Assembly: GCF_013122565.1 (NCBI RefSeq) | Contig: NZ_CP053258.1 | Reading direction: 5' to 3' (one strand) | DNA length: 64,000 nt | From: Escherichia coli | GTDB taxonomy: Bacteria; Pseudomonadota; Gammaproteobacteria; Enterobacterales; Enterobacteriaceae | Shown here: positions 109-46,392 of the stretch, in pieces | Layout of the letters: every line of letters starts with the position of its first letter | Position numbering within the stretch: position 1 is the first letter of the stretch | Notes under the pieces: model-generated | What the model was told of the DNA's origin: nothing | Seen by the model: only the letters and a program-made list of their open reading frames with translations | Databases searched by the model: none | Translations under genes and position numbers: made by a program

Positions 109-1223
109 GCCTGTTTATCCTCATTGCCTGGCTGATGTTCGGTTTCTGTAGGTTGCTGGTTATGACGTCTGCGCTGGTCAACGGCGCTGGCGACTGCGTG
201 CACACCAACAGCCGCTGCCACCACGCCAAGCGCGGTTAAACCGACGGTATCGGCGGTGGAATGAGTACCCATTTGCGGAATATCGACCACGCGGCTGTAG
301 AACGAACCGCGATCCCAGAAACCATTTTCCGCACAGCCCAGGCAGCCGTGACCAGACTGGATTGGGAAAGAAACGCCATCATTCCAGCGTGTGGAGGAAC
401 AGGCGTTATAGGTGGTAGGCCCTTTGCAGCCCATTTTGTACAGGCAGTAACCTTTGCGGGCAGCGTCATCATCCCAACTCTGGACGAACTCTCCGGCGTC
501 GAAGTGGGCGCGGCGATAGCATTTATCGTGGATTCGCTGACCATAGAACATCAATGGACGGCCCATTCTGTCGACATCTGGCAAGCGATCAAAGGTCACC
601 ATGTAAGTAATGATGGCGCTCATCACATCCGGGATCGGCGGGCAGCCAGGTACTTTGATAATGGGTTTGTCGGTGATGACTTTGTCGATAGGCGTTGCCT
701 GTGTCGGATTAGGTCGCGCGGCCTGCACGCAGCCCCAGGACGCGCAGGTTCCCCAGGCGATAATCGCACTGGCTCCGGCAGCGGCACGTTTAAGTTTCTC
801 AATAAACGGTCGTCCGCTGCTGATACAGAACATCCCCTGCTCGCCCAGCGGCGGATTACCTTCTACTGCGAGGATATATTTGCCATTGTATTGCGTGATG
901 ATGTCTTCAAAGACTTCTTCCGCCTGGGTTCCGGCGGCAGCCATCAAAGTATCGTCATAATCGAGGGAAATCAGGGAAAGGATGACGTCCTTTGCCAGCG
1001 GGTGAGCGGAGCGGATAAAAGATTCGGTACAGCAGGTGCATTCCAGACCGTGGATCCATACCACCGGAATGCGCGGTTTGTTCTCCAGCGCCCAGGCAAT
1101 CTTTGGTGCCATTCCCGCGCCTAATCCCAGCGACGTGGCAGCCAGACTGCAATATTTGAGAAAGCTGCGTCGGGTAACGCCCTGACGCCGCATGGCCTGG
1201 TAAAATGTTTCCTCGTTATTCAT
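105..1223 (-). CDS. hyaA: Hydrogenase-1 small subunit HyaA with Tat signal (RRSFLK), 372 aa
   Basis: ORF 105..1250 trimmed to the [25 protein letters not shown] start; Cys-rich [NiFe] small-subunit motifs. Confidence 0.93.
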
Positions 1224-1608
1224 ATCGCACGTCTCTTCTCCTTGCGACACCGGCAGGACACCGGGCGCTTATGGTCGGCAAGCGACGTCCCTGTAGCAAG
1301 GCAAACCATCGCTTCACGTGAGATGCTGAAAACGAAAGCTCATCCTTCTGCACTGGCGCACGTCGCCAGAAAGTATTGTTAATAAAGCGTAGTGAAACTT
1401 TTGCACAAAACAATACAAACTGTGTGGATTTATCTTTTAGCGATAAAAATGGACCTATTTTTCTTTTTGCCGGGCGGTGGGGATGTTTAGCCAGTTGCTA
1501 AACAAGTAAAAGAGAAGGAATTCATGGTGATGAAATGATCAATCTGCTGTTATTTCACGCTATTAATGCACTTTTGGCTGTTTTTCAGGCAAACAAACAA
1601 ATTAGGGG

Positions 1609-1637
1609 TTTACACGCCGCATCGGGATGTTTATAGT
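1609..1637 (+). promoter_or_regulatory. Putative sigma70 promoter of serT (TTTACA-17 nt-TATAGT, GC-rich discriminator)
   Basis: TTTACA at 1609-1614, TATAGT at 1632-1637, then GCGCGTC just before the tRNA 5' end. Confidence 0.5.
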
Positions 1638-1649
1638 GCGCGTCATTCC

Positions 1650-1737
1650 GGAAGTGTGGCCGAGCGGTTGAAGGCACCGGTCTTGAAAACCGGCGACCCG
1701 AAAGGGTTCCAGAGTTCGAATCTCTGCGCTTCCGCCA
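1650..1737 (+). tRNA. serT: tRNA-Ser (anticodon UGA), 88 nt with long variable arm
   Basis: GGAAGTGTGGCCGAGCGG...GGTTCCAGAGTTCGAATCTCTGCGCTTCCGCCA; anticodon loop CTTGAAA; T-loop GTTCGAATC. Confidence 0.95.
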
Positions 1738-1747
1738 AATAAGATAA

Positions 1748-1779
1748 GGGGTTAGCTAAATGCTAACCCCTTTTTCTTT
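1748..1779 (+). terminator. Rho-independent terminator after serT
   Basis: Stem GGGGTTAGC / GCTAACCCC, loop TAAAT, followed by TTTTTCTTTT. Confidence 0.75.
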
Positions 1780-1943
1780 TGCCTGTCTAAATTCTCAGGG
1801 CGTTATATTTGCTTAATGACCTGATAATCCGCTGTTAAACCTGTTCCAGATCAAATGCGTAAAGATGGGTAAAACTTCTGGGTGCCCTTACGCATTATCA
1901 TTATGCTGCTTAATTAATTACATCTGTCATAGAGAGTGACTCA

Positions 1944-2603
1944 ATGGATCGTATTGTTAGTTCTTCACATGACCGTACATCACTGCTTAGCACCCATAAG
2001 GTGCTGCGTAATACCTATTTTCTGCTGAGCCTGACGCTGGCCTTTTCGGCGATTACCGCAACTGCCAGTACGGTGCTGATGCTGCCATCTCCGGGTCTGA
2101 TTCTGACGCTGGTGGGTATGTATGGTTTGATGTTCCTGACCTATAAAACGGCGAATAAGCCGACCGGGATTATCTCCGCATTCGCCTTTACCGGTTTTCT
2201 GGGTTATATCCTCGGACCAATTCTGAATACCTATCTGTCTGCCGGAATGGGTGACGTAATCGCTATGGCACTGGGCGGAACGGCGTTAGTGTTCTTCTGC
2301 TGCTCTGCATATGTGCTGACCACCCGCAAAGATATGTCGTTCCTCGGCGGTATGCTGATGGCGGGTATTGTGGTGGTACTGATTGGTATGGTTGCGAATA
2401 TCTTCCTGCAGCTGCCTGCTCTGCATCTGGCGATCAGCGCGGTCTTCATTCTGATCTCCTCTGGCGCTATTTTGTTTGAAACCAGCAACATCATTCATGG
2501 CGGTGAAACGAACTATATTCGTGCCACGGTTAGCCTGTATGTTTCGCTGTACAACATCTTCGTCAGCCTGCTGAGCATTCTGGGCTTCGCCAGCCGCGAT
2601 TAA
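1944..2603 (+). CDS. yccA: Bax-inhibitor-1 family inner membrane protein YccA (FtsH modulator), 219 aa
   Basis: ORF 1944..2603; polytopic hydrophobic sequence matching remembered YccA. Confidence 0.93.
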
Positions 2604-2625
2604 TCTCACCCGCTAACACTGTCAT

Positions 2626-2655
2626 AGCCTCGCTTTATGCGGGGCTTTGTTTTTT
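2626..2655 (+). terminator. Rho-independent terminator after yccA
   Basis: Stem AGCCTCGC / GCGGGGCT with T-rich tail TTGTTTTTT. Confidence 0.6.
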
Positions 2656-2693
2656 GTTACACTGCCGCCAGTCTGATTAAGGTAGTAATAATT

Positions 2694-3023
2694 ATGCTGA
2701 TCTTCGAAGGTAAAGAGATAGAAACGGATACCGAAGGCTATCTCAAAGAAAGCAGCCAGTGGAGTGAGCCGCTGGCAGTGGTGATTGCAGAGAACGAAGG
2801 GATTTCGCTGTCGCCAGAACACTGGGAAGTGGTGCGTTTCGTGCGTGATTTCTATCTGGAATTCAATACTTCTCCGGCGATTCGTATGCTGGTAAAAGCG
2901 ATGGCGAATAAATTTGGCGAAGAAAAAGGTAACAGCCGCTATTTATATCGACTGTTTCCGAAAGGTCCGGCTAAGCAAGCCACCAAAATTGCTGGCCTGC
3001 CAAAACCGGTAAAATGTATTTAA
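2694..3023 (+). CDS. tusE: Sulfur relay protein TusE (DsrC-like), 109 aa
   Basis: ORF 2637..3023 trimmed to ATG at 2694 ([12 protein letters not shown]...); C-terminal PKPVKCI. Confidence 0.9.
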
Positions 3024-5589: not shown

Positions 5590-6252
5590 ATGAAAACCGG
5601 CATCGTGACCACCTTGATTGCATTATGTTTGCCGGTATCCGTTTTTGCCACCACGCTGCGGCTTTCAACCGATGTCGATCTTCTGGTACTCGACGGCAAG
5701 AAGGTTTCCAGCTCTCTGCTGCGCGGTGCGGACAGCATTGAACTGGATAATGGACCGCATCAGTTAGTGTTTCGCGTTGAGAAGACGATTCATCTTTCCA
5801 ATAGTGAAGAGCGGCTGTATATCTCCCCACCGCTGGTGGTCAGTTTTAATACCCAGCTCATCAACCAGGTCAATTTTCGCCTGCCTCGCCTGGAGAATGA
5901 GCGGGAAGCTAACCATTTTGATGCCGCGCCGTACCTTGAATTGTTGGATGGCGATGCGACGCCAATTCCGGTAAAGCTGGATATTCTCGCCATTACCTCA
6001 ACGGCAAAAACGATTGATTATGAGGTCGAGGTTGAACGCTATAACAAATCTGCGAAACGCGCTTCACTACCGCAATTTGCCACGATGATGGCAGATGACA
6101 GTACGCTGCTTTCGGGTGTTTCCGAGCTGGATGCTATTCCACCGCAGTCTCAGGTGCTCACAGAACAACGGCTGAAGTATTGGTTTAAACTGGCTGATCC
6201 CCAAACGCGAAATACTTTCCTGCAATGGGCGGAAAAACAACCATCTTCCTGA
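5590..6252 (+). CDS. yccT: Secreted DUF2057 family protein YccT, 220 aa with signal peptide
   Basis: ORF 5590..6252; N-terminal signal [20 protein letters not shown]. Confidence 0.9.
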
Positions 6253-14437: not shown

Positions 14438-14890
14438 TTATTCCTTACCCAGCAATGCCTGCAGATCCTGCTTCAGAGAAGACATTTTATTCGCGTATTT
14501 CTCTTTGTTTTCCGCATCTTCAATCAGCTGAACAATCGTTTCAGAAAGCGTTTTACCGCGACGCTGCGCAAGACCAGCCAGACGTTGCCAGACAATAAAT
14601 TCCAGATCGATCGATTTTTTGCGCGTATGCTGGTGTTCCGCATTAAAATGGCGCTTCCGTCTGGCCCGAATGGTTTGCTTCATGCGATTGACCAGTTCCG
14701 GATTCATATGCTTGTCAATCCAGCCATTTACCAGCACGGGTTCATTTTCCAGCGAGAGCAACACATCGACGGCTTCCTGGGCGGCACTGGCTTCTATGTA
14801 ACGGGTGATTAACTCCCCTTCGCGGTGCTTCTTCACCAGATACTTCCATTTCCAACCGCTTTCAAGATTTTCAAGTTGTTGATATTTCAT
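14438..14890 (-). CDS. matP: Ter macrodomain organiser MatP, 150 aa
   Basis: ORF 14438..14890; [26 protein letters not shown]. Confidence 0.93.
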
Positions 14891-28694: not shown

Positions 28695-28708
28695 ACGCAA
28701 ACGTTTTC
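28695..28708. promoter_or_regulatory. PurR-box-like operator upstream of pyrD
   Basis: ACGCAAACGTTTTC matches the purine repressor operator core (ACGCAAACGTTT...); about 90 nt upstream of the pyrD ATG. Confidence 0.6.
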
Positions 28709-28718
28709 CGAACCTGTT

Positions 28719-29429
28719 TCAGGGCAGATTTTGCTCCTTCTTTGCACTCAACCCGCCGTAATCATTTATCGCCCGCCAGGCGACATGACACGGTGCGATT
28801 GCCTGACACCAGCTTGTCTGACGCTGGCTTTTAGGCGGCACAACTCCCGCATTACTAAACGCTTTACCATTTACGCTCACCTGAATCAGGTTAATGTAGT
28901 AAGGCGTTGGGTTAGTGAGTTGTACACCCTGCGAATTCCGTGTCCAGCGTAATTGTTGATAAGCTTCCAGCGGGTCGCCCGGCAAACCTTCGGGTCGCCA
29001 GAACAGTTTAAATACCGAGCGCATCGCCACTTTTACGCTCTGATTTTCAACTTTGCCGGATGGCACGCTGGCAATGCTTAACTCAAATAGCGTTTCGCGA
29101 TCCACAGGCAAGATGTCGCTTTCCGTTCTCAGCAAGCGCAACGTGCCTGTAGTACCGGGCTTCAGGAGAATAAGTGGCGGAGCGGCCAGTAATGGTGCTG
29201 GCACTGTCGACGCTTCACCCCCGGCCCAACGCGTTGGTCGATTGATTTTACTGTTAATAAGCCAGGATTCCTGACTGGTATTAGTCAGTAAAATAGATAT
29301 TGATTCTCTGTCTGCCGGAAAGATAAATCGCGTTCCGCCGACCACCACTCCTGCCTGCAATTCACCCGCCACCAGCAGCGATAAAACGGCGAAAATCAAG
29401 AGCGCCAATCTGTTCCACGTATTAGTCAT
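28719..29429 (-). CDS. ycbF: Periplasmic pilus chaperone (PapD-like) YcbF, about 236 aa
   Basis: ORF 28719..29456; start set at MTNTWNRLALLIFAVLSLL (ATG 29427-29429); chaperone-like sequence. Confidence 0.8.
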   Translation of the reverse strand: MTNTWNRLALLIFAVLSLLVAGELQAGVVVGGTRFIFPADRESISILLTNTSQESWLINSKINRPTRWAGGEASTVPAPLLAAPPLILLKPGTTGTLRLLRTESDILPVDRETLFELSIASVPSGKVENQSVKVAMRSVFKLFWRPEGLPGDPLEAYQQLRWTRNSQGVQLTNPTPYYINLIQVSVNGKAFSNAGVVPPKSQRQTSWCQAIAPCHVAWRAINDYGGLSAKKEQNLP

Positions 29430-29937
29430 AATGAAGTACAAATGTCGCGCTGGCATTCACTTTACCCGACTGCACATCGCTATTGACAGGTCGCAATTGC
29501 GCATAAAAAGTTAATGGCACCTTACCGCTATGTAGGCTGTAGTCTTTACTCGCCTGGTTAAGCGGAATCAATATCTTCGCATCATCCAGAATCGCAATTG
29601 CCAGCCCGCTGGCTGCATCCGTACCACTTTCAATGGACAGCATTTCGCTCTGCACTCCATCGGGGGCTCCTGAAAAGGTGACGTCAACCGTGCTGACATC
29701 TGTTCCGCAATCCTGCAAATTAATGATGAAAGATTTCTCCGGGCCATAATTCCCATGAGAAAAACGTGTCAGCGAGACATCGCCTAACTGCACATTGATT
29801 TGCTTGCTATCCTGTGCCAGCACGCATGTATTACGGCGAAACGATCCGCTAATGTTGACCGTGCCATCATGGGCAAATAGCTCACAGCCCCACGTTAATC
29901 CCAGTAAGAACAGAATCCAGATTATCCGTTTCAACAT
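29422..29937 (-). CDS. ycbV: Fimbrial subunit-like protein YcbV, about 171 aa
   Basis: ORF 29422..29985; start set at MLKRIIWILFLLGL signal (ATG 29935-29937); C-terminal ATFVLHYD pilin-like strand. Confidence 0.8.
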   Translation of the reverse strand: MLKRIIWILFLLGLTWGCELFAHDGTVNISGSFRRNTCVLAQDSKQINVQLGDVSLTRFSHGNYGPEKSFIINLQDCGTDVSTVDVTFSGAPDGVQSEMLSIESGTDAASGLAIAILDDAKILIPLNQASKDYSLHSGKVPLTFYAQLRPVNSDVQSGKVNASATFVLHYD

Positions 29938-29944
29938 CACTCCT

Positions 29945-30487
29945 TCACTGGTAAACCAGATCAAAATAGAGAACCGCCGTCGCATTACCGCCCGTTGCTC
30001 CCGCCTTTGTGGACTTATAACGAAGTTGATATTTGAGTGTGTTATCCCCGGCTTTTAAGGGCGTAAGAGGCTGGACCTGATTGAGCGGGATTTCTTGCTG
30101 ACTTTGCGCATCAAGAATTTGCACGGCAATCCCCGTTGCCATACCACCGCTTCCGCCTGTGTCAGTTAGTTTGAGCAGTGTTGGCGCAAGGGTGTCAGCC
30201 TCGCCGCTAAAAAGAACGTCCGCGCCAGTAATACCAGCGGCACAACCGGTGATATCGATATTCAAATCGGCAGCAGTGCTTACGGTATTCGCGACCTGAA
30301 AATCACTGATATTAAAATCGCCAATATGAATATTTTGTAATGCACTTTTGGTGGCGACATCACAGCCCTGATCGACCACATTCCCATAAATATGCATACT
30401 AACTTGTTCAGGCCCAGCCATCCCGACATGGATGTTAAGAAGGCTAAAGAACAAGATAACGCACTGAAATATCGTTTTTTTCTTCAT
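29945..30487 (-). CDS. ycbU: Fimbrial subunit-like protein YcbU, 180 aa
   Basis: ORF 29945..30487; signal peptide; C-terminal AVLYFDLVYQ. Confidence 0.85.
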   Translation of the reverse strand: MKKKTIFQCVILFFSLLNIHVGMAGPEQVSMHIYGNVVDQGCDVATKSALQNIHIGDFNISDFQVANTVSTAADLNIDITGCAAGITGADVLFSGEADTLAPTLLKLTDTGGSGGMATGIAVQILDAQSQQEIPLNQVQPLTPLKAGDNTLKYQLRYKSTKAGATGGNATAVLYFDLVYQ

Positions 30488-30498
30488 ACGTTCACGCG

Positions 30499-34160
<3,662 letters not shown>

Positions 34161-34184
34161 CTCGCTCTCTTAACTGAAGACGTC

Positions 34185-34886
34185 TTACGATTTACAGTTG
34201 AGTTGCGGCGTTTCCGCCCCGTAGTCATTGATAGTTCGGTACGTTACGCTGCTGCTTTGTGCTCCCTTTGGCAGAGAGAATTGGTATTTATCAAAGGGAG
34301 AAATCATTTGATTTTTAACTACTTTTCCACCAATTTTCAGGTCTGTCAGGGTAATGAAATAAGGTGTTGGGTTACTGACCGTAACCATGTCAGCTGACGA
34401 AGTGCAACGCAGTTTCGCCGGAGCCTCGGCTAAGGGATACGCTAAACCTTTTGGTCGCCAGAAAAGTTTGATGACGCTTTGTGTGGCAATCTTCAGGGTA
34501 TTTCCCTCTTCCCGCTTCGTTGTTGAAGGGACTGCCCGTACGCTAGTGAAGAAAAGGGTTTCTCTGTCTTTCGGCAACGGCGCGCCAATGTACATAATGC
34601 GTAACAGATTCTCATTTGCCGGATTCAGCACAAATAGCGGTGGTGTAATAATAAAGTCTGCTGATTTTTTATTATCTGGGGTCATCACCCATGACTGAAT
34701 AAGATAAGGAACATCCGGACTGGTGTTACGTACACCCAGTGAAATTTGCTCTTCACCTTCTGAATAAACAAGACGTGTTGCTGCAAGTCCAATCCCGCCT
34801 TTACCTGCCGCCCATGCGGATGAGCAGCTGAGCAATATTGCCGTTAAACTTACGGTCACAATTCCCTTTGTTATGCAAGTTTTCAT
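34185..34886 (-). CDS. elfD: Periplasmic fimbrial chaperone ElfD (YcbR), 233 aa
   Basis: ORF 34185..34886; PapD-like chaperone sequence. Confidence 0.9.
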   Translation of the reverse strand: MKTCITKGIVTVSLTAILLSCSSAWAAGKGGIGLAATRLVYSEGEEQISLGVRNTSPDVPYLIQSWVMTPDNKKSADFIITPPLFVLNPANENLLRIMYIGAPLPKDRETLFFTSVRAVPSTTKREEGNTLKIATQSVIKLFWRPKGLAYPLAEAPAKLRCTSSADMVTVSNPTPYFITLTDLKIGGKVVKNQMISPFDKYQFSLPKGAQSSSVTYRTINDYGAETPQLNCKS

Positions 34887-34968
34887 AAATAGTCACTCTT
34901 AAAAAATATGAATATCCCCTCCAGAACACTGGAGGGGTACTAATTAATAAAACAATTAATGAGTTCTA

Positions 34969-35508
34969 TTAATAATAGTTAATATGGAAATTTGTTACCG
35001 CATTCACATTACCAGAAGTCGCTTTCCCCGTAGCGATATAATCAACTTTAAAAGTCAACGTCTGATCTCCATCTTGCAACAAAATGTTCCCGGTTTCTGT
35101 GTCTGGCGTGATGGCCGTTCTACCATCATTCATATACATTTGCAGGGCCACGTTTGTAGCAGCATCAGATGAGGCCTGGTTAGCAAACGCTGTAATCTGA
35201 GTAGTATCCGCAGTGCCATTAAAGGTGAACGTTGCATTTTTTGTTACGGTAGTATCACAATCTTTTAATTCAATTGGCACATCAGTTTGCACGCCAGAAA
35301 CCTGACCATTGGTTTGCAACTTCGTGGCACTAACATCTGGCAAAGTCACCACGGAATCTTTCGTCGCAGCGACCAGAGTACAAGCTGGAGCAATAACTTT
35401 ACCATTAAATGTTACTGAGCCATCCGTGATAGCATTATCATCAGCAGCCATAACGCTGGACGTTGCACATACCACAGTTATAAACGCCGTCAATACACTT
35501 TTTTTCAT
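34969..35508 (-). CDS. elfA: Major fimbrial subunit ElfA (YcbQ), 179 aa
   Basis: ORF 34969..35517 trimmed to MKKSVLTAFITVVCATSSVMA; ATG confirmed 35506-35508; C-terminal VTNFHINYY. Confidence 0.88.
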   Translation of the reverse strand: MKKSVLTAFITVVCATSSVMAADDNAITDGSVTFNGKVIAPACTLVAATKDSVVTLPDVSATKLQTNGQVSGVQTDVPIELKDCDTTVTKNATFTFNGTADTTQITAFANQASSDAATNVALQMYMNDGRTAITPDTETGNILLQDGDQTLTFKVDYIATGKATSGNVNAVTNFHINYY

Positions 35509-35863
35509 CGTTATCATCCTGATCTCTTCGTAAATATGATAATGCCTTTAAATGACATTAGACTTAATAATAACAATAATTGTCCGCCATTTAAATCAAG
35601 CATACTAAATCCAATAAGTGACAAATCTTTAATTTATAGATTTCATGAATATTTAAATATTAACTGAACGAGTAATTCATTGATTCAACATCTAATGACT
35701 ATCCAATAAATCAATATGCGTGATATATAAAGCCCTTTCTTTAGTTTATTTTCAGAAAAAGATACACAAAATTTATATTTGGCATTTTCTTGTCTCTCCG
35801 ACAGACTGACCGAATTGTTATCAATGTTAACAAAAAAAGAACAATTGGTTATAAGGAGAGAGT
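35509..35863. promoter_or_regulatory. AT-rich divergent control region between elfA and ssuE
   Basis: 355 bp visibly AT-rich with A/T tracts; holds promoters for both divergent operons. Confidence 0.6.
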
Positions 35864-36439
35864 ATGCGTGTCATCACCCTGGCGGGTAGTCCTCGCTTTC
35901 CTTCTCGCTCCAGCTCCTTGCTGGAATATGCGCGGGAAAAACTAAATGGCCTGGATGTAGAGGTTTATCACTGGAATCTGCAAAACTTCGCCCCGGAAGA
36001 TCTACTTTATGCTCGTTTCGATAGTCCGGCACTCAAGACCTTCACCGAACAGCTGCAACAGGCCGATGGGCTGATTGTCGCCACGCCTGTGTATAAAACC
36101 GCCTATTCCGGTGCGCTGAAAACCCTGCTCGACCTGCTGCCAGAACGCGCTTTGCAAGGCAAAGTGGTGCTACCGCTGGCGACGGGCGGTACGGTGGCTC
36201 ATCTGCTGGCGGTCGATTATGCCCTTAAGCCAGTTTTAAGTACGATGAAAGCCCAGGAGATCCTGCACGGCGTGTTTGCCGATGACTCACAAGTTATTGA
36301 TTACCATCACAAACCCCAGTTCACGCCAAATCTGCAAACCCGTCTTGATACCGCGCTAGAAACTTTCTGGCAGGCATTGCACCGCCGCGATGTTCAGGTT
36401 CCTGACCTTCTGTCTCTGCGAGGTAATGTCCATGCGTAA
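35864..36439 (+). CDS. ssuE: NADPH-dependent FMN reductase SsuE, 191 aa
   Basis: ORF 35864..36439; preceded by AAGGAGAG. Confidence 0.93.
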   Translation: MRVITLAGSPRFPSRSSSLLEYAREKLNGLDVEVYHWNLQNFAPEDLLYARFDSPALKTFTEQLQQADGLIVATPVYKTAYSGALKTLLDLLPERALQGKVVLPLATGGTVAHLLAVDYALKPVLSTMKAQEILHGVFADDSQVIDYHHKPQFTPNLQTRLDTALETFWQALHRRDVQVPDLLSLRGNVHA

Positions 36440-37391
36440 CATCATTAAACTGGCGCTGGCGGGATTGCTTAGCGTCTCTACGATTGTGGTTGCTGCAGAA
36501 TCCTCGCCTGAAGCGTTAAGGATTGGCTATCAGAAAAGCAATATCAGTTCTGTGCTGGCGAAAAATTACCAAATGCTGGAAAAACGCTATCCGCAAACAA
36601 AAATCTCGTGGGTGGAGTTTCCCGCGGGACCGCAAATGTTGGAAGCGTTAAACGTTGGCAGTATTGATCTCGGCAGTACCGGGGATATTCCGCCAATCTT
36701 TGCCCAGGCTGCCGGGGCTGATTTGGTATATGTGGGCGTCGAGCCACCGAAGCCCAAAGCCGAAGTGATTCTGGTGGCAGAAAACAGCCCGATCAAAACC
36801 GTAGCCGATCTTAAAGGTCACAAAGTTGCCTTTCAGAAAGGTTCCAGTTCACACAACCTTTTACTGCGTGCACTGCGTCAGGCCGGACTTAAGTTTACCG
36901 ATATACAACCCACTTACCTGACACCCGCTGATGCCCGCGCCGCGTTCCAGCAAGGTAACGTTGACGCCTGGGCTATCTGGGATCCCTACTACTCTGCTGC
37001 ATTATTACAGGGCGGCGTGCGGGTGTTGAAAGACGGCACCGATCTCAATCAAACCGGATCGTTTTATCTGGCAGCTCGCCCCTATGCAGAAAAAAACGGC
37101 GCTTTTATTCAGGGCGTACTGGCAACTTTCAGCAAGGCTGATGCGTTAACTCGCAGCCAGCGTGAGCAAAGCATCGCTTTACTGGCCAAAACAATGGGTT
37201 TACCGGCACCGGTGATTGCCTCGTATCTGGATCATCGTCCTCCCACCACCATCAAACCGGTGAGCGCTGAAGTTGCCGCCTTACAGCAGCAAACGGCAGA
37301 TCTGTTTTATGAAAACCGTCTGGTGCCGAAAAAAGTCGATATTCGCCAGCGCATCTGGCAGCCCACTCAACTGGAAGGAAAACAATTATGA
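36432..37391 (+). CDS. ssuA: Aliphatic sulfonate ABC transporter substrate-binding protein SsuA, 319 aa
   Basis: ORF 36390..37391 trimmed to [21 protein letters not shown]; ATG 36432 overlaps the ssuE stop. Confidence 0.92.
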
Positions 37392-38543: not shown

Positions 38544-39335
38544 ATGGCAACGCCAGTGAAGAAGTGGTTATTGCGCGTTGCCCCCTGGTTTTTACCGGTG
38601 GGCATCGTGGCGGTGTGGCAACTGGCCTCCTCAGTTGGCTGGCTGTCGACGCGTATTTTGCCCTCACCGGAAGGGGTGGTGATGGCGTTCTGGACGCTCT
38701 CCGCCAGCGGCGAACTGTGGCAGCATCTGGCGATCAGCACCTGGCGGGCGCTGATTGGCTTTTCAATTGGCGGATCGCTGGGCTTGATTCTGGGACTGAT
38801 TAGCGGGCTGTCACGCTGGGGAGAACGGCTGCTGGATACCTCCATTCAGATGTTGCGCAACGTGCCGCATCTGGCGCTGATCCCGCTGGTGATTTTGTGG
38901 TTTGGCATTGATGAATCCGCAAAAATCTTTCTGGTGGCGCTCGGTACGCTATTCCCCATTTATATCAACACCTGGCACGGCATCCGTAATATCGATCGCG
39001 GGTTGGTGGAAATGGCGCGTAGCTATGGATTATCCGGCATACCGCTGTTTATCCATGTGATCCTGCCTGGTGCCCTGCCCTCAATTATGGTCGGCGTGCG
39101 TTTTGCGTTGGGCCTGATGTGGCTGACGCTGATTGTTGCCGAAACCATTTCTGCCAATTCAGGCATTGGTTATCTGGCGATGAATGCGCGGGAGTTTTTG
39201 CAAACGGACGTGGTGGTAGTCGCTATTATTCTTTACGCCTTGCTCGGCAAACTTGCTGACGTCAGCGCGCAGCTGTTAGAGCGCCTCTGGTTGCGCTGGA
39301 ATCCGGCTTATCATTTGAAGGAGGCCACGGTATGA
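38544..39335 (+). CDS. ssuC: Aliphatic sulfonate ABC transporter permease SsuC, 263 aa
   Basis: ORF 38499..39335 trimmed to [19 protein letters not shown]. Confidence 0.92.
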
Positions 39336-45792: not shown

Positions 45793-45804
45793 TTTAGCGT
45801 CTAC

Positions 45805-45832
45805 AAGAGCCAGCACCCGCTGGCTCTTTTTT
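45805..45832 (+). terminator. Rho-independent terminator after asnS
   Basis: Stem GAGCCAGC / GCTGGCTC, loop ACCC, followed by TTTTTT. Confidence 0.8.
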
Positions 45833-45903
45833 ATCCTTTCTGTCAAGTTATCTGTTTGTTAAGTCAAGCAATCTATTTGCAACCCCGCCATAACGATCAT
45901 CCT

Positions 45904-45933
45904 GTTACGGAATATTACATTGCAACATTTACG
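45904..45933 (+). promoter_or_regulatory. Distal OmpR-binding site (F4-like) upstream of ompF
   Basis: GTTACGGAATATTACATTGCAACATTTACG with repeated TTACG/ACATT units about 380 nt upstream of the expected ompF TSS. Confidence 0.55.
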
Positions 45934-46183
45934 CACAAAAAATAACCCGCATTCTTATTGCGGATTAGTTTTTTCTTAGCTGATAGCACAATTTTCATAC
46001 TATTTTTTGGCATTCTGGATGTCTGAAAGAAGATTTTGTGCCAGGTCGATAAAGTTTCCATCAGAAACAAAATTTCCGTTTAGTTAATTTAAATATAAGG
46101 AAATCATATAAATAGATAAAAATTGCTGTAAATATCATCACGCTTCTATGGAAATATGACGGTGTTCACAAAGTTCCTTAATT

Positions 46184-46248
46184 TTTACTTTTGGTTACAT
46201 ATTTTTTCTTTTTGAAACCAAATCTTTATATTTGTAGCACTTTCACGG
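46184..46248 (+). promoter_or_regulatory. Proximal OmpR-binding sites F1-F2-F3 and ompF promoter
   Basis: TTTACTTTTGGTTACATATTTTTTCTTTTTGAAACCAAATCTTTATATTTGTAGCACTTTCACGG, tandem GNNNC/ACATNT-like OmpR half-sites. Confidence 0.75.
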
Positions 46249-46392
46249 TAGCGAAACGTTAGTTTGAATGGAAAGATGCCTGCAGACACATAAAGACACC
46301 AAACTCTCATCAATAGTTCCGTAAATTTTTATTGACAGAACTTATTGACGGCAGTGGCAGGTGTCATAAAAAAACCATGAGGGTAATAAATA

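Follow-up and report, generated by a model that had tools for sequence, protein, structure and literature searches.

The divergent spacer between the elf fimbrial operon and ssuEADCB raises the question of how a single short, AT-rich stretch came to carry the control signals of a cryptic adhesin operon on one strand and those of a sulfur-scavenging operon on the other. We addressed this question within a window of 64 kb (the whole stretch of E. coli DNA analysed here), which runs from hyaA to lpxK and is collinear, in reverse orientation, with approximately 969-1033 kb of MG1655. The answer that we consider likely is that the spacer is a chimera serving as a promoter region in both directions, in which H-NS-coated elf DNA brought in with an island abuts an ancestral block belonging to ssuE. 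Below, we describe the locus and its composition, the boundaries of the island, the conserved DNA that is missing beside ssuE, and the regulators and promoters that would act on this region.

An AT-rich spacer separates elfA and ssuE

The first-pass annotation described a strongly AT-rich divergent region of 355 bp between elf and ssuEADCB, and its coordinates proved to be exact, as 35509-35863 is precisely the gap between the start of elfA on the minus strand (35508) and the start of ssuE on the plus strand (35864). The spacer thus lies directly 5' of the sulfate-starvation-induced operon ssuEADCB (Table 1). The identities of both flanking genes were confirmed by the RefSeq annotation and by Pfam, with ElfA matching the Fimbrial family (PF00419, E 3e-17) and SsuE matching FMN_red (E 1e-35). 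The MG1655 counterpart of the spacer, 997513-997867, is also 355 bp long; the window spacer is 99.4% identical to that of the K-12-derived strains NCM3722 and W3110, and a few bases differ from MG1655. A megablast search with positions 35300-36100 found a match in 5413 of 5426 complete E. coli genomes, and the matched stretch bears the annotations elfA and ssuE.

Table 1. Features of the elfA-ssuE region and their positions in the window (strand: +, - or, where none is assigned, a dot).
Feature	Position	Strand	Description
elfA (ycbQ)	34969..35508	-	Major subunit of the cryptic ELF/Ycb chaperone-usher fimbriae; GC 42%; RefSeq annotation
ssuE	35864..36439	+	NADPH-dependent FMN reductase, first gene of ssuEADCB; RefSeq annotation
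elfA/ssuE divergent spacer	35509..35863	.	72.4% A+T; the SlyA EMSA fragment of PMC5797941
elf island	28709..35795	.	ycbF-ycbV-ycbU-elfG-elfC-elfD-elfA plus 287 bp of AT-rich promoter DNA; apparent insertion between pyrD and ssuE
Island-borne part of spacer	35509..35795	.	287 bp, 74.2% A+T; absent from elf-less E. coli and other genera
Ancestral ssuE-proximal block	35796..35863	+	68 bp, 64.7% A+T; Enterobacteriaceae-wide; Shine-Dalgarno and candidate extended -10 core
Candidate elfA promoter	35567..35595	-	TTTAAA-17-TATTAT with upstream TG; consensus scan; predicted start about 50 nt before the elfA ATG
Sigma-70-like site towards ssuE	35552..35580	+	ATGACA-17-AATAAT; consensus scan; predicted; about 285 bp upstream of ssuE
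Candidate ssuE promoter P_a	35751..35779	+	TTCAGA-17-TATATT; island DNA; conserved in Escherichia sp. E1V33
Candidate ssuE promoter P_b	35779..35807	+	TTGGCA-17-CAGACT; spans the junction; predicted from sequence
Candidate ancestral ssuE core promoter P_c	35798..35824	+	CCGACA-15-TGtTATCAA, extended -10; predicted, with a start about 33 nt before the ATG
IHF core consensus, exact	35673..35685	-	AATCAATGAATTA (WATCAANNNNTTR); 1 match against 0.05 expected in shuffles
Palindrome resembling a LysR-type box	35714..35726	.	ATATGCGTGATAT; chance frequency; a lead only
Proposed SlyA site	35511..35522	-	TCAGGATGATAA; 8 bp upstream of elfA; Curran et al., PMC5797941; 4 mismatches to TTAGCAAGCTAA
H-NS-like match	35631..35640	-	TCTATAAATT; one mismatch from the H-NS high-affinity motif TCGATAAATT; weak
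9-bp IS1 target	35732..35740	.	Duplicated by a 768-bp IS1 insertion in E. coli strain 98202

The spacer was also said to be much more AT-rich than the genes that flank it, and the composition of the window bears this out. Placing the 59 genes of the RefSeq annotation on the window leaves 35 intergenic regions of at least 30 bp, among which the spacer ranks first, with 72.4% A+T as compared with 44-70% for the other 34, 59.6% for all intergenic DNA of the window and 48.0% for its coding DNA. The next AT-richest intergenic regions are elfD-elfA (69.5%, 82 bp) and asnS-ompF (66.0%). In a sliding-window scan, the spacer is the top 355-bp stretch of the window: only 38 of 63,646 positions reach its A+T content, every one of them overlapping the spacer, while the best 355-bp stretch outside it, at asnS-ompF, reaches 70.4%. 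With windows of 200 bp, GC content falls to 0.255 at the spacer and stands at 0.44-0.58 in the flanks.

Two expectations about the fine structure of this DNA fared less well. The spacer is not full of A/T tracts, since it contains only 5 homopolymer runs of at least four A or four T (14 per kb) and most other spacers of the window have more; its AT-richness derives from mixed A/T runs (13 of at least 6 bp, the longest being 16) and from TpA steps, which make up 10.7% of the spacer as against 7.0% elsewhere. Predicted intrinsic curvature, calculated with a wedge model of approximate parameters and therefore itself approximate, is unremarkable on average (mean rank 12 of 21), with one strong peak near 35760. 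Phased A-tract curvature was accordingly rejected as the main feature of the spacer, given the low density of A-tracts and the average mean curvature. The strongest predicted bend in the window, approximately 36 degrees at 46121, belongs to the asnS-ompF spacer (45793-46392).

Most of the spacer appears to have arrived with the elf operon

In the elf-less E. coli strain KC-Dl-1, pyrD adjoins ssuE, and homology to the window ends at 28708 and resumes at 35796. This elf-less form is found in 1353 of the 5426 E. coli genomes, including one ST131 and one O2:K1:H4 strain, and in these genomes the match to the spacer is confined to its final 68 bp; 3966 genomes have 80% or more of the AT-rich spacer. 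That about a quarter of E. coli genomes are elf-less agrees with the phylogroup pattern described by Wurpel 2013, in which Ycb fimbriae are linked to phylogroups A, B1, D and E, and Auf fimbriae to B2.

A scan for SsuE with one genome per species yielded 80 Enterobacteriaceae loci. At 75 of these, from Citrobacter, Enterobacter, Klebsiella, Kosakonia, Leclercia, Kluyvera, Raoultella, Buttiauxella and other genera, pyrD is directly adjacent to and divergent from ssuE, and no fimbrial operon is present between them. The pyrD-ssuE spacers of these loci are about 240 bp long (median 248 bp) and contain 52-63% A+T. A fimbrial operon next to ssuE was seen only in Escherichia sp. E1V33, whose spacer of 354 bp (72% A+T) has the same right-hand junction as the window, and in two Pseudocitrobacter loci. 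Taken together, the 75 of 80 loci across genera and the alignment with elf-less E. coli argue that the pyrD-ssuE arrangement is ancestral and that 28709-35795 is an inserted island. The elfA-side 287 bp of the spacer (35509-35795, 74% A+T) would then have arrived together with the elf/ycb operon, in part of the genus Escherichia.

At the left junction of the island, the PurR-box-like sequence GCAAACGTTTTC (28697-28708) stays with pyrD, upstream of which it is conserved in all genera. As it ends exactly at this junction, the insertion would have split the old pyrD-ssuE spacer right beside it. Near the right junction, the island side and the corresponding DNA of elf-less strains share a TTTGGC(A)TTTTCTT similarity, which 28 of 300 shuffles reach and which is therefore not significant; the junction could lie approximately 18 bp further upstream, accompanied by a 28-bp deletion.

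Some further rearrangements at this locus were observed. In the two Pseudocitrobacter loci (L030 and L040, positions 1223-3000), an elf-like operon abuts ssuE, with 54% identity for ElfA and 66-67% for ElfD, and the spacer there (471 bp, 68% A+T) is unrelated to that of the window. IS1 has entered the spacer in E. coli strain 98202 (Table 1), and in strain 23AR1101 an IS1 stands in place of elfA, the entire spacer and the initial 27 bp of ssuE (window positions 34949-35890). The spacer search returned 66 more matching places than records, so that other genomes may also carry a split spacer.

Conserved ssuE upstream DNA is missing from the window

The ancestral pyrD-ssuE spacers align well across genera. 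Read from the pyrD side, they contain a block ending in the PurR-box-like GCAAACGTTTTC, then TTATGCA...GGCATTT and GATAAATCATTT[AC]G, followed by CTCTGTCAC, AATTGTTATCAATGTTA and AACAATTGGTTATAAGGAG, and lastly the ssuE ATG. An nhmmer profile of this spacer, built from non-Escherichia genera only, matches elf-less E. coli from end to end (E 7e-34). Against the window, the same profile is confident only from approximately 35796 to the ssuE ATG (E 3e-16), and in the island-side part of the spacer it returned only a negative-scoring match to ATAAATCA. About 69 bp of ssuE upstream DNA that are conserved across the family are missing from the window. Elf-less E. coli has these 69 bp, and they line up with pyrD-ssuE spacers from Citrobacter, Enterobacter, Klebsiella, Kosakonia and other genera, GATAAATCATTT included.

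Part of the missing DNA is the exact 14-mer GATAAATCATTT[AC]G, which occurs in 32 loci at a fixed distance of -96 to -83 from the ssuE ATG (positions 5974-5987 of the KC-Dl-1 locus, L003) and is not found in the window spacer even when 2 mismatches are allowed. We regard it as a candidate ancestral Cbl/CysB site. The element is a near-palindrome, TAAAT-C-ATTTA, and is not found in elf-positive E. coli.

These alignments also bear on the direction of the change. If the island had been ancestral to Escherichia and the elf-less form had been derived from it by deletion in B2, then the AT-rich DNA would be old control DNA of ssuE. Such a history has some points of contact with the data: Gonzalez-Alba 2019 describe ycb as lost in a G/B2 sub-lineage, the non-coli Escherichia sp. 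E1V33 has the island with the same right-hand junction, and an elf-like operon also abuts ssuE in Pseudocitrobacter. However, no deletion could have brought back 69 bp that are alignable with other genera and contain GATAAATCATTT, and at 75 of the 80 loci, which come from many genera, there is no fimbrial operon. We therefore consider this history unlikely. Elf may have been lost through allelic replacement from an elf-less donor, and even in that case the AT-rich DNA would be non-ancestral to ssuE.

Reported H-NS association and SlyA binding of the shared spacer

Regulation of this spacer has been studied before. Curran et al. 2017 (PMC5797941) amplified the same 355-bp fragment, with primers at the two ends of the spacer, and found that SlyA binds it in EMSA with a Kd(app) of approximately 50-100 nM; on SlyA overproduction, ssuEADCB rose 3.6-fold and elfADCG-ycbUVF rose 2.7-fold. 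The same paper lists the two operons as H-NS-associated on the basis of three genome-wide studies (Grainger 2006, Kahramanoglou 2011 and Oshima 2006), and it describes elf as an operon that H-NS represses and that is cryptic in the laboratory (Korea 2010, as cited there). These second-hand reports of H-NS association and of a cryptic elf operon support the suggestion, made from the sequence, that the spacer is subject to H-NS-type silencing at a cryptic fimbrial promoter. Other sources are more reserved. The main text of Grainger 2006 names neither ssuEADCB nor the elf genes, the in vitro SELEX table of Shimada 2014 (PMC3946193) has no H-NS flag at this spacer, and a later reporter study picked four promoters as robustly SlyA-responsive, with neither the ssuE nor the elfA fusion among them.

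The first-pass annotation further held that two unrelated regulatory programmes share one AT-rich island. The sharing stands, but the programmes are not unrelated, as both operons rise together when SlyA is overproduced; because of their common H-NS association and their common SlyA response, the elf and ssu programmes are not independent of each other.

Counts of H-NS, SlyA, Lrp and LysR-box motifs in the spacer do not exceed those in shuffled sequence. Matches of the H-NS motif class, for instance, number 7 as against 4.3 +/- 2.0 in shuffles, which is no enrichment, and LysR-type T-N11-A dyads number 2 as against 1.7 by chance. Motif evidence adds little beyond base composition.

These counts are what would be expected if the AT-richness were no more than the ordinary promoter and UP-element composition of a spacer that holds two promoters, with neither nucleoid-protein silencing nor foreign origin, and it is also true that the intergenic DNA of the window is AT-rich in general (59.6%) and that other divergent spacers reach 63-64%. 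We nevertheless judge this reading to be very unlikely. The A+T content of the spacer is well above that of any of the other 34 and is the extreme value of the whole window; its AT-rich part coincides exactly with the segment that comes and goes with the elf operon, whereas the ancestral spacer has only 52-63% A+T; and there are published reports, in part second-hand, of H-NS association, of derepression in an hns mutant and of SlyA binding. The spacer has both elevated A+T and the presence/absence pattern of accessory DNA, two of the features expected of an H-NS-silenced, xenogeneic promoter region.

A phase-variation switch (fimS-like and invertible, or pap-like and dependent on Dam and Lrp) or an unannotated small gene or RNA hidden in the spacer can be dismissed as highly implausible: many fimbrial operons are phase-variable, and the region offers a 10-nt inverted repeat (35432-35441 and 35536-35545) and a 43-codon open reading frame (35536-35667), but the repeat brackets the elfA start codon and not a promoter and is, by our own estimate, at about chance level in so AT-rich a stretch, no recombinase gene lies nearby, GATC occurs just once, Lrp-like matches are fewer than the mean of shuffled sequences, and the reading frame, which has no Pfam match, is interrupted in strain HCM-24C-3 by an indel of 1 nt. 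We also found no Rfam match in 34800-36600 at E up to 1, and no consensus RNA fold of the conserved ssuE leader (RNAalifold, -0.13 kcal/mol).

Candidate promoters on either side of the junction

RpoD holoenzyme alone binds the spacer in vitro (SELEX; Shimada et al. 2014, PMC3946193). The hexamers given in that study, TTTAAA-17-TATTAT for elfA and ATGACA-17-AATAAT for ssuEADCB, are identical to sites returned by our own consensus scan. The start-site map of Kim 2012 contains no transcription start within the spacer in either direction, which fits with both promoters being silent in standard media.

Three candidates for the ssuE promoter, P_a, P_b and P_c, can be read from the sequence (Table 1), and our favourite is P_c, a predicted promoter on the ancestral side of the junction. 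Its extended -10 motif, TGnTAT[CG], is found at 69 of the 75 pyrD-adjacent loci; in 42 of them it precedes the ssuE ATG by 48 nt, as it does in the window, and in most there is a TG[TC]CA element upstream of it. The combined element, TG(T/C)CA-15/16-TGnTAT(C/G)AA, is family-wide (loci L008-L086) and resembles an extended -10 core promoter of ssuE. The -35-like hexamer beside the junction, at 35779-35784, reads TTGGCA in the window, in the other aligned E. coli and in E1V33, and TTGGAA in MG1655.

Activation of ssu by the LysR-type regulator Cbl is stated in the literature. Van der Ploeg et al. 1999 reportedly showed that expression of ssu is Cbl-dependent and sulfate-repressed and requires a Cbl site located 5' to the -35 element, and that the region additionally has three sites for CysB and three for IHF. 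In the literature covered here, we found no usable coordinates for the ssuE start or for the Cbl site. Whichever of P_a, P_b and P_c is taken, a site upstream of the -35 element would come to lie to the left of approximately 35798, on non-ancestral DNA. By this reasoning, the activator sites of K-12 ssu are probably located on island-borne DNA.

A probable chimeric control region

We return to the reading that we consider likely, that of island-borne elf DNA joined to an ancestral ssuE block. Its composition, gene identities, insertion boundaries and conservation come from the present analysis, and its H-NS association, SlyA binding, co-induction and cryptic elf operon from the literature; the positions of the promoters and the placement of the Cbl site are inferred. 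According to this reading, the elfA promoter would lie on island DNA and would most likely be TTTAAA-17-TATTAT (35595-35567). H-NS would coat both the island part of the spacer and the AT-rich 5' portion of the elf operon, thereby keeping the fimbriae silent, and SlyA, acting on the same fragment, would partly relieve this repression. The ancestral 68 bp (35796-35863) would supply ssuE with its ribosome-binding site and with the conserved core described above. In elf-positive strains such as K-12, the Cbl site for activation under sulfate starvation would be carried by the island-borne AT-rich DNA, and the ssu operon would in this way share H-NS/SlyA-sensitive DNA with elf.

As a regulatory object, the AT-rich spacer adds nothing new, as its H-NS association, its SlyA binding, its cryptic fimbrial promoter and its Cbl-dependent ssu promoter are already in the literature. 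The sole new element is one of history: from the alignments, the AT-rich part of the spacer appears to be island-borne and to have replaced conserved DNA upstream of ssuE.

A more far-reaching proposal, which we put forward tentatively and at somewhat less than even confidence, is that the elf insertion removed the approximately 69 bp of conserved DNA that include GATAAATCATTT[AC]G, and that the Cbl/CysB/IHF architecture of K-12 is a lineage-specific rebuild. The ssu operon would then be under H-NS and SlyA only in elf-positive strains, while B2 strains and other genera would keep the original, H-NS-free control region. If H-NS silencing does reach ssuE only in elf-positive strains, the locus would be a clean natural case of a core metabolic operon rewired by a foreign adhesin operon. 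In practical terms, the textbook K-12 ssu promoter would differ from the ancestral one. The ssuE control region beside pyrD is a different one, lower in A+T, in a quarter of the sequenced E. coli genomes (B2-type, including ST131) and in most Enterobacteriaceae, and what is known of ssu regulation in K-12 may not transfer to elf-less strains and other genera.

Comparison with known systems

The window spacer is the same locus as the K-12 ssuE-elfA region of earlier work (Curran et al. 2017; van der Ploeg et al. 1999), and the history of the insertion and the loss of ancestral DNA go unmentioned in the literature examined. Among other targets of SlyA, hlyE and fimB of E. coli and pagC of Salmonella are likewise AT-rich, H-NS-repressed and SlyA-bound, and go up on SlyA overproduction. 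Unlike these, the elfA-ssuE fragment serves two divergent operons, and its SlyA response in reporters was not judged robust. The csgDEFG-csgBAC region and others similar to it also consist of a long, AT-rich divergent spacer that is bound by holoenzyme in vitro and is concerned with adhesin control; both sides of csg, however, belong to one pathway, whereas one side of elfA-ssuE is a core sulfur-scavenging operon whose upstream DNA appears to have been displaced. The tauABCD operon is the other Cbl-activated sulfate-starvation operon, and RNA polymerase binds its yaiS-tauA spacer in vitro as well.

One feature elsewhere in the ssu operon belongs to a different system. The 12-bp palindrome GCTGACGTCAGC at 39255-39266, in the 3' end of ssuC, is tidR, a Ter-macrodomain insulator (Thiel et al. 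2012, PMC3330122). The window contains a single copy, as against 0.02 expected, and it also includes matP, at 14438-14890.
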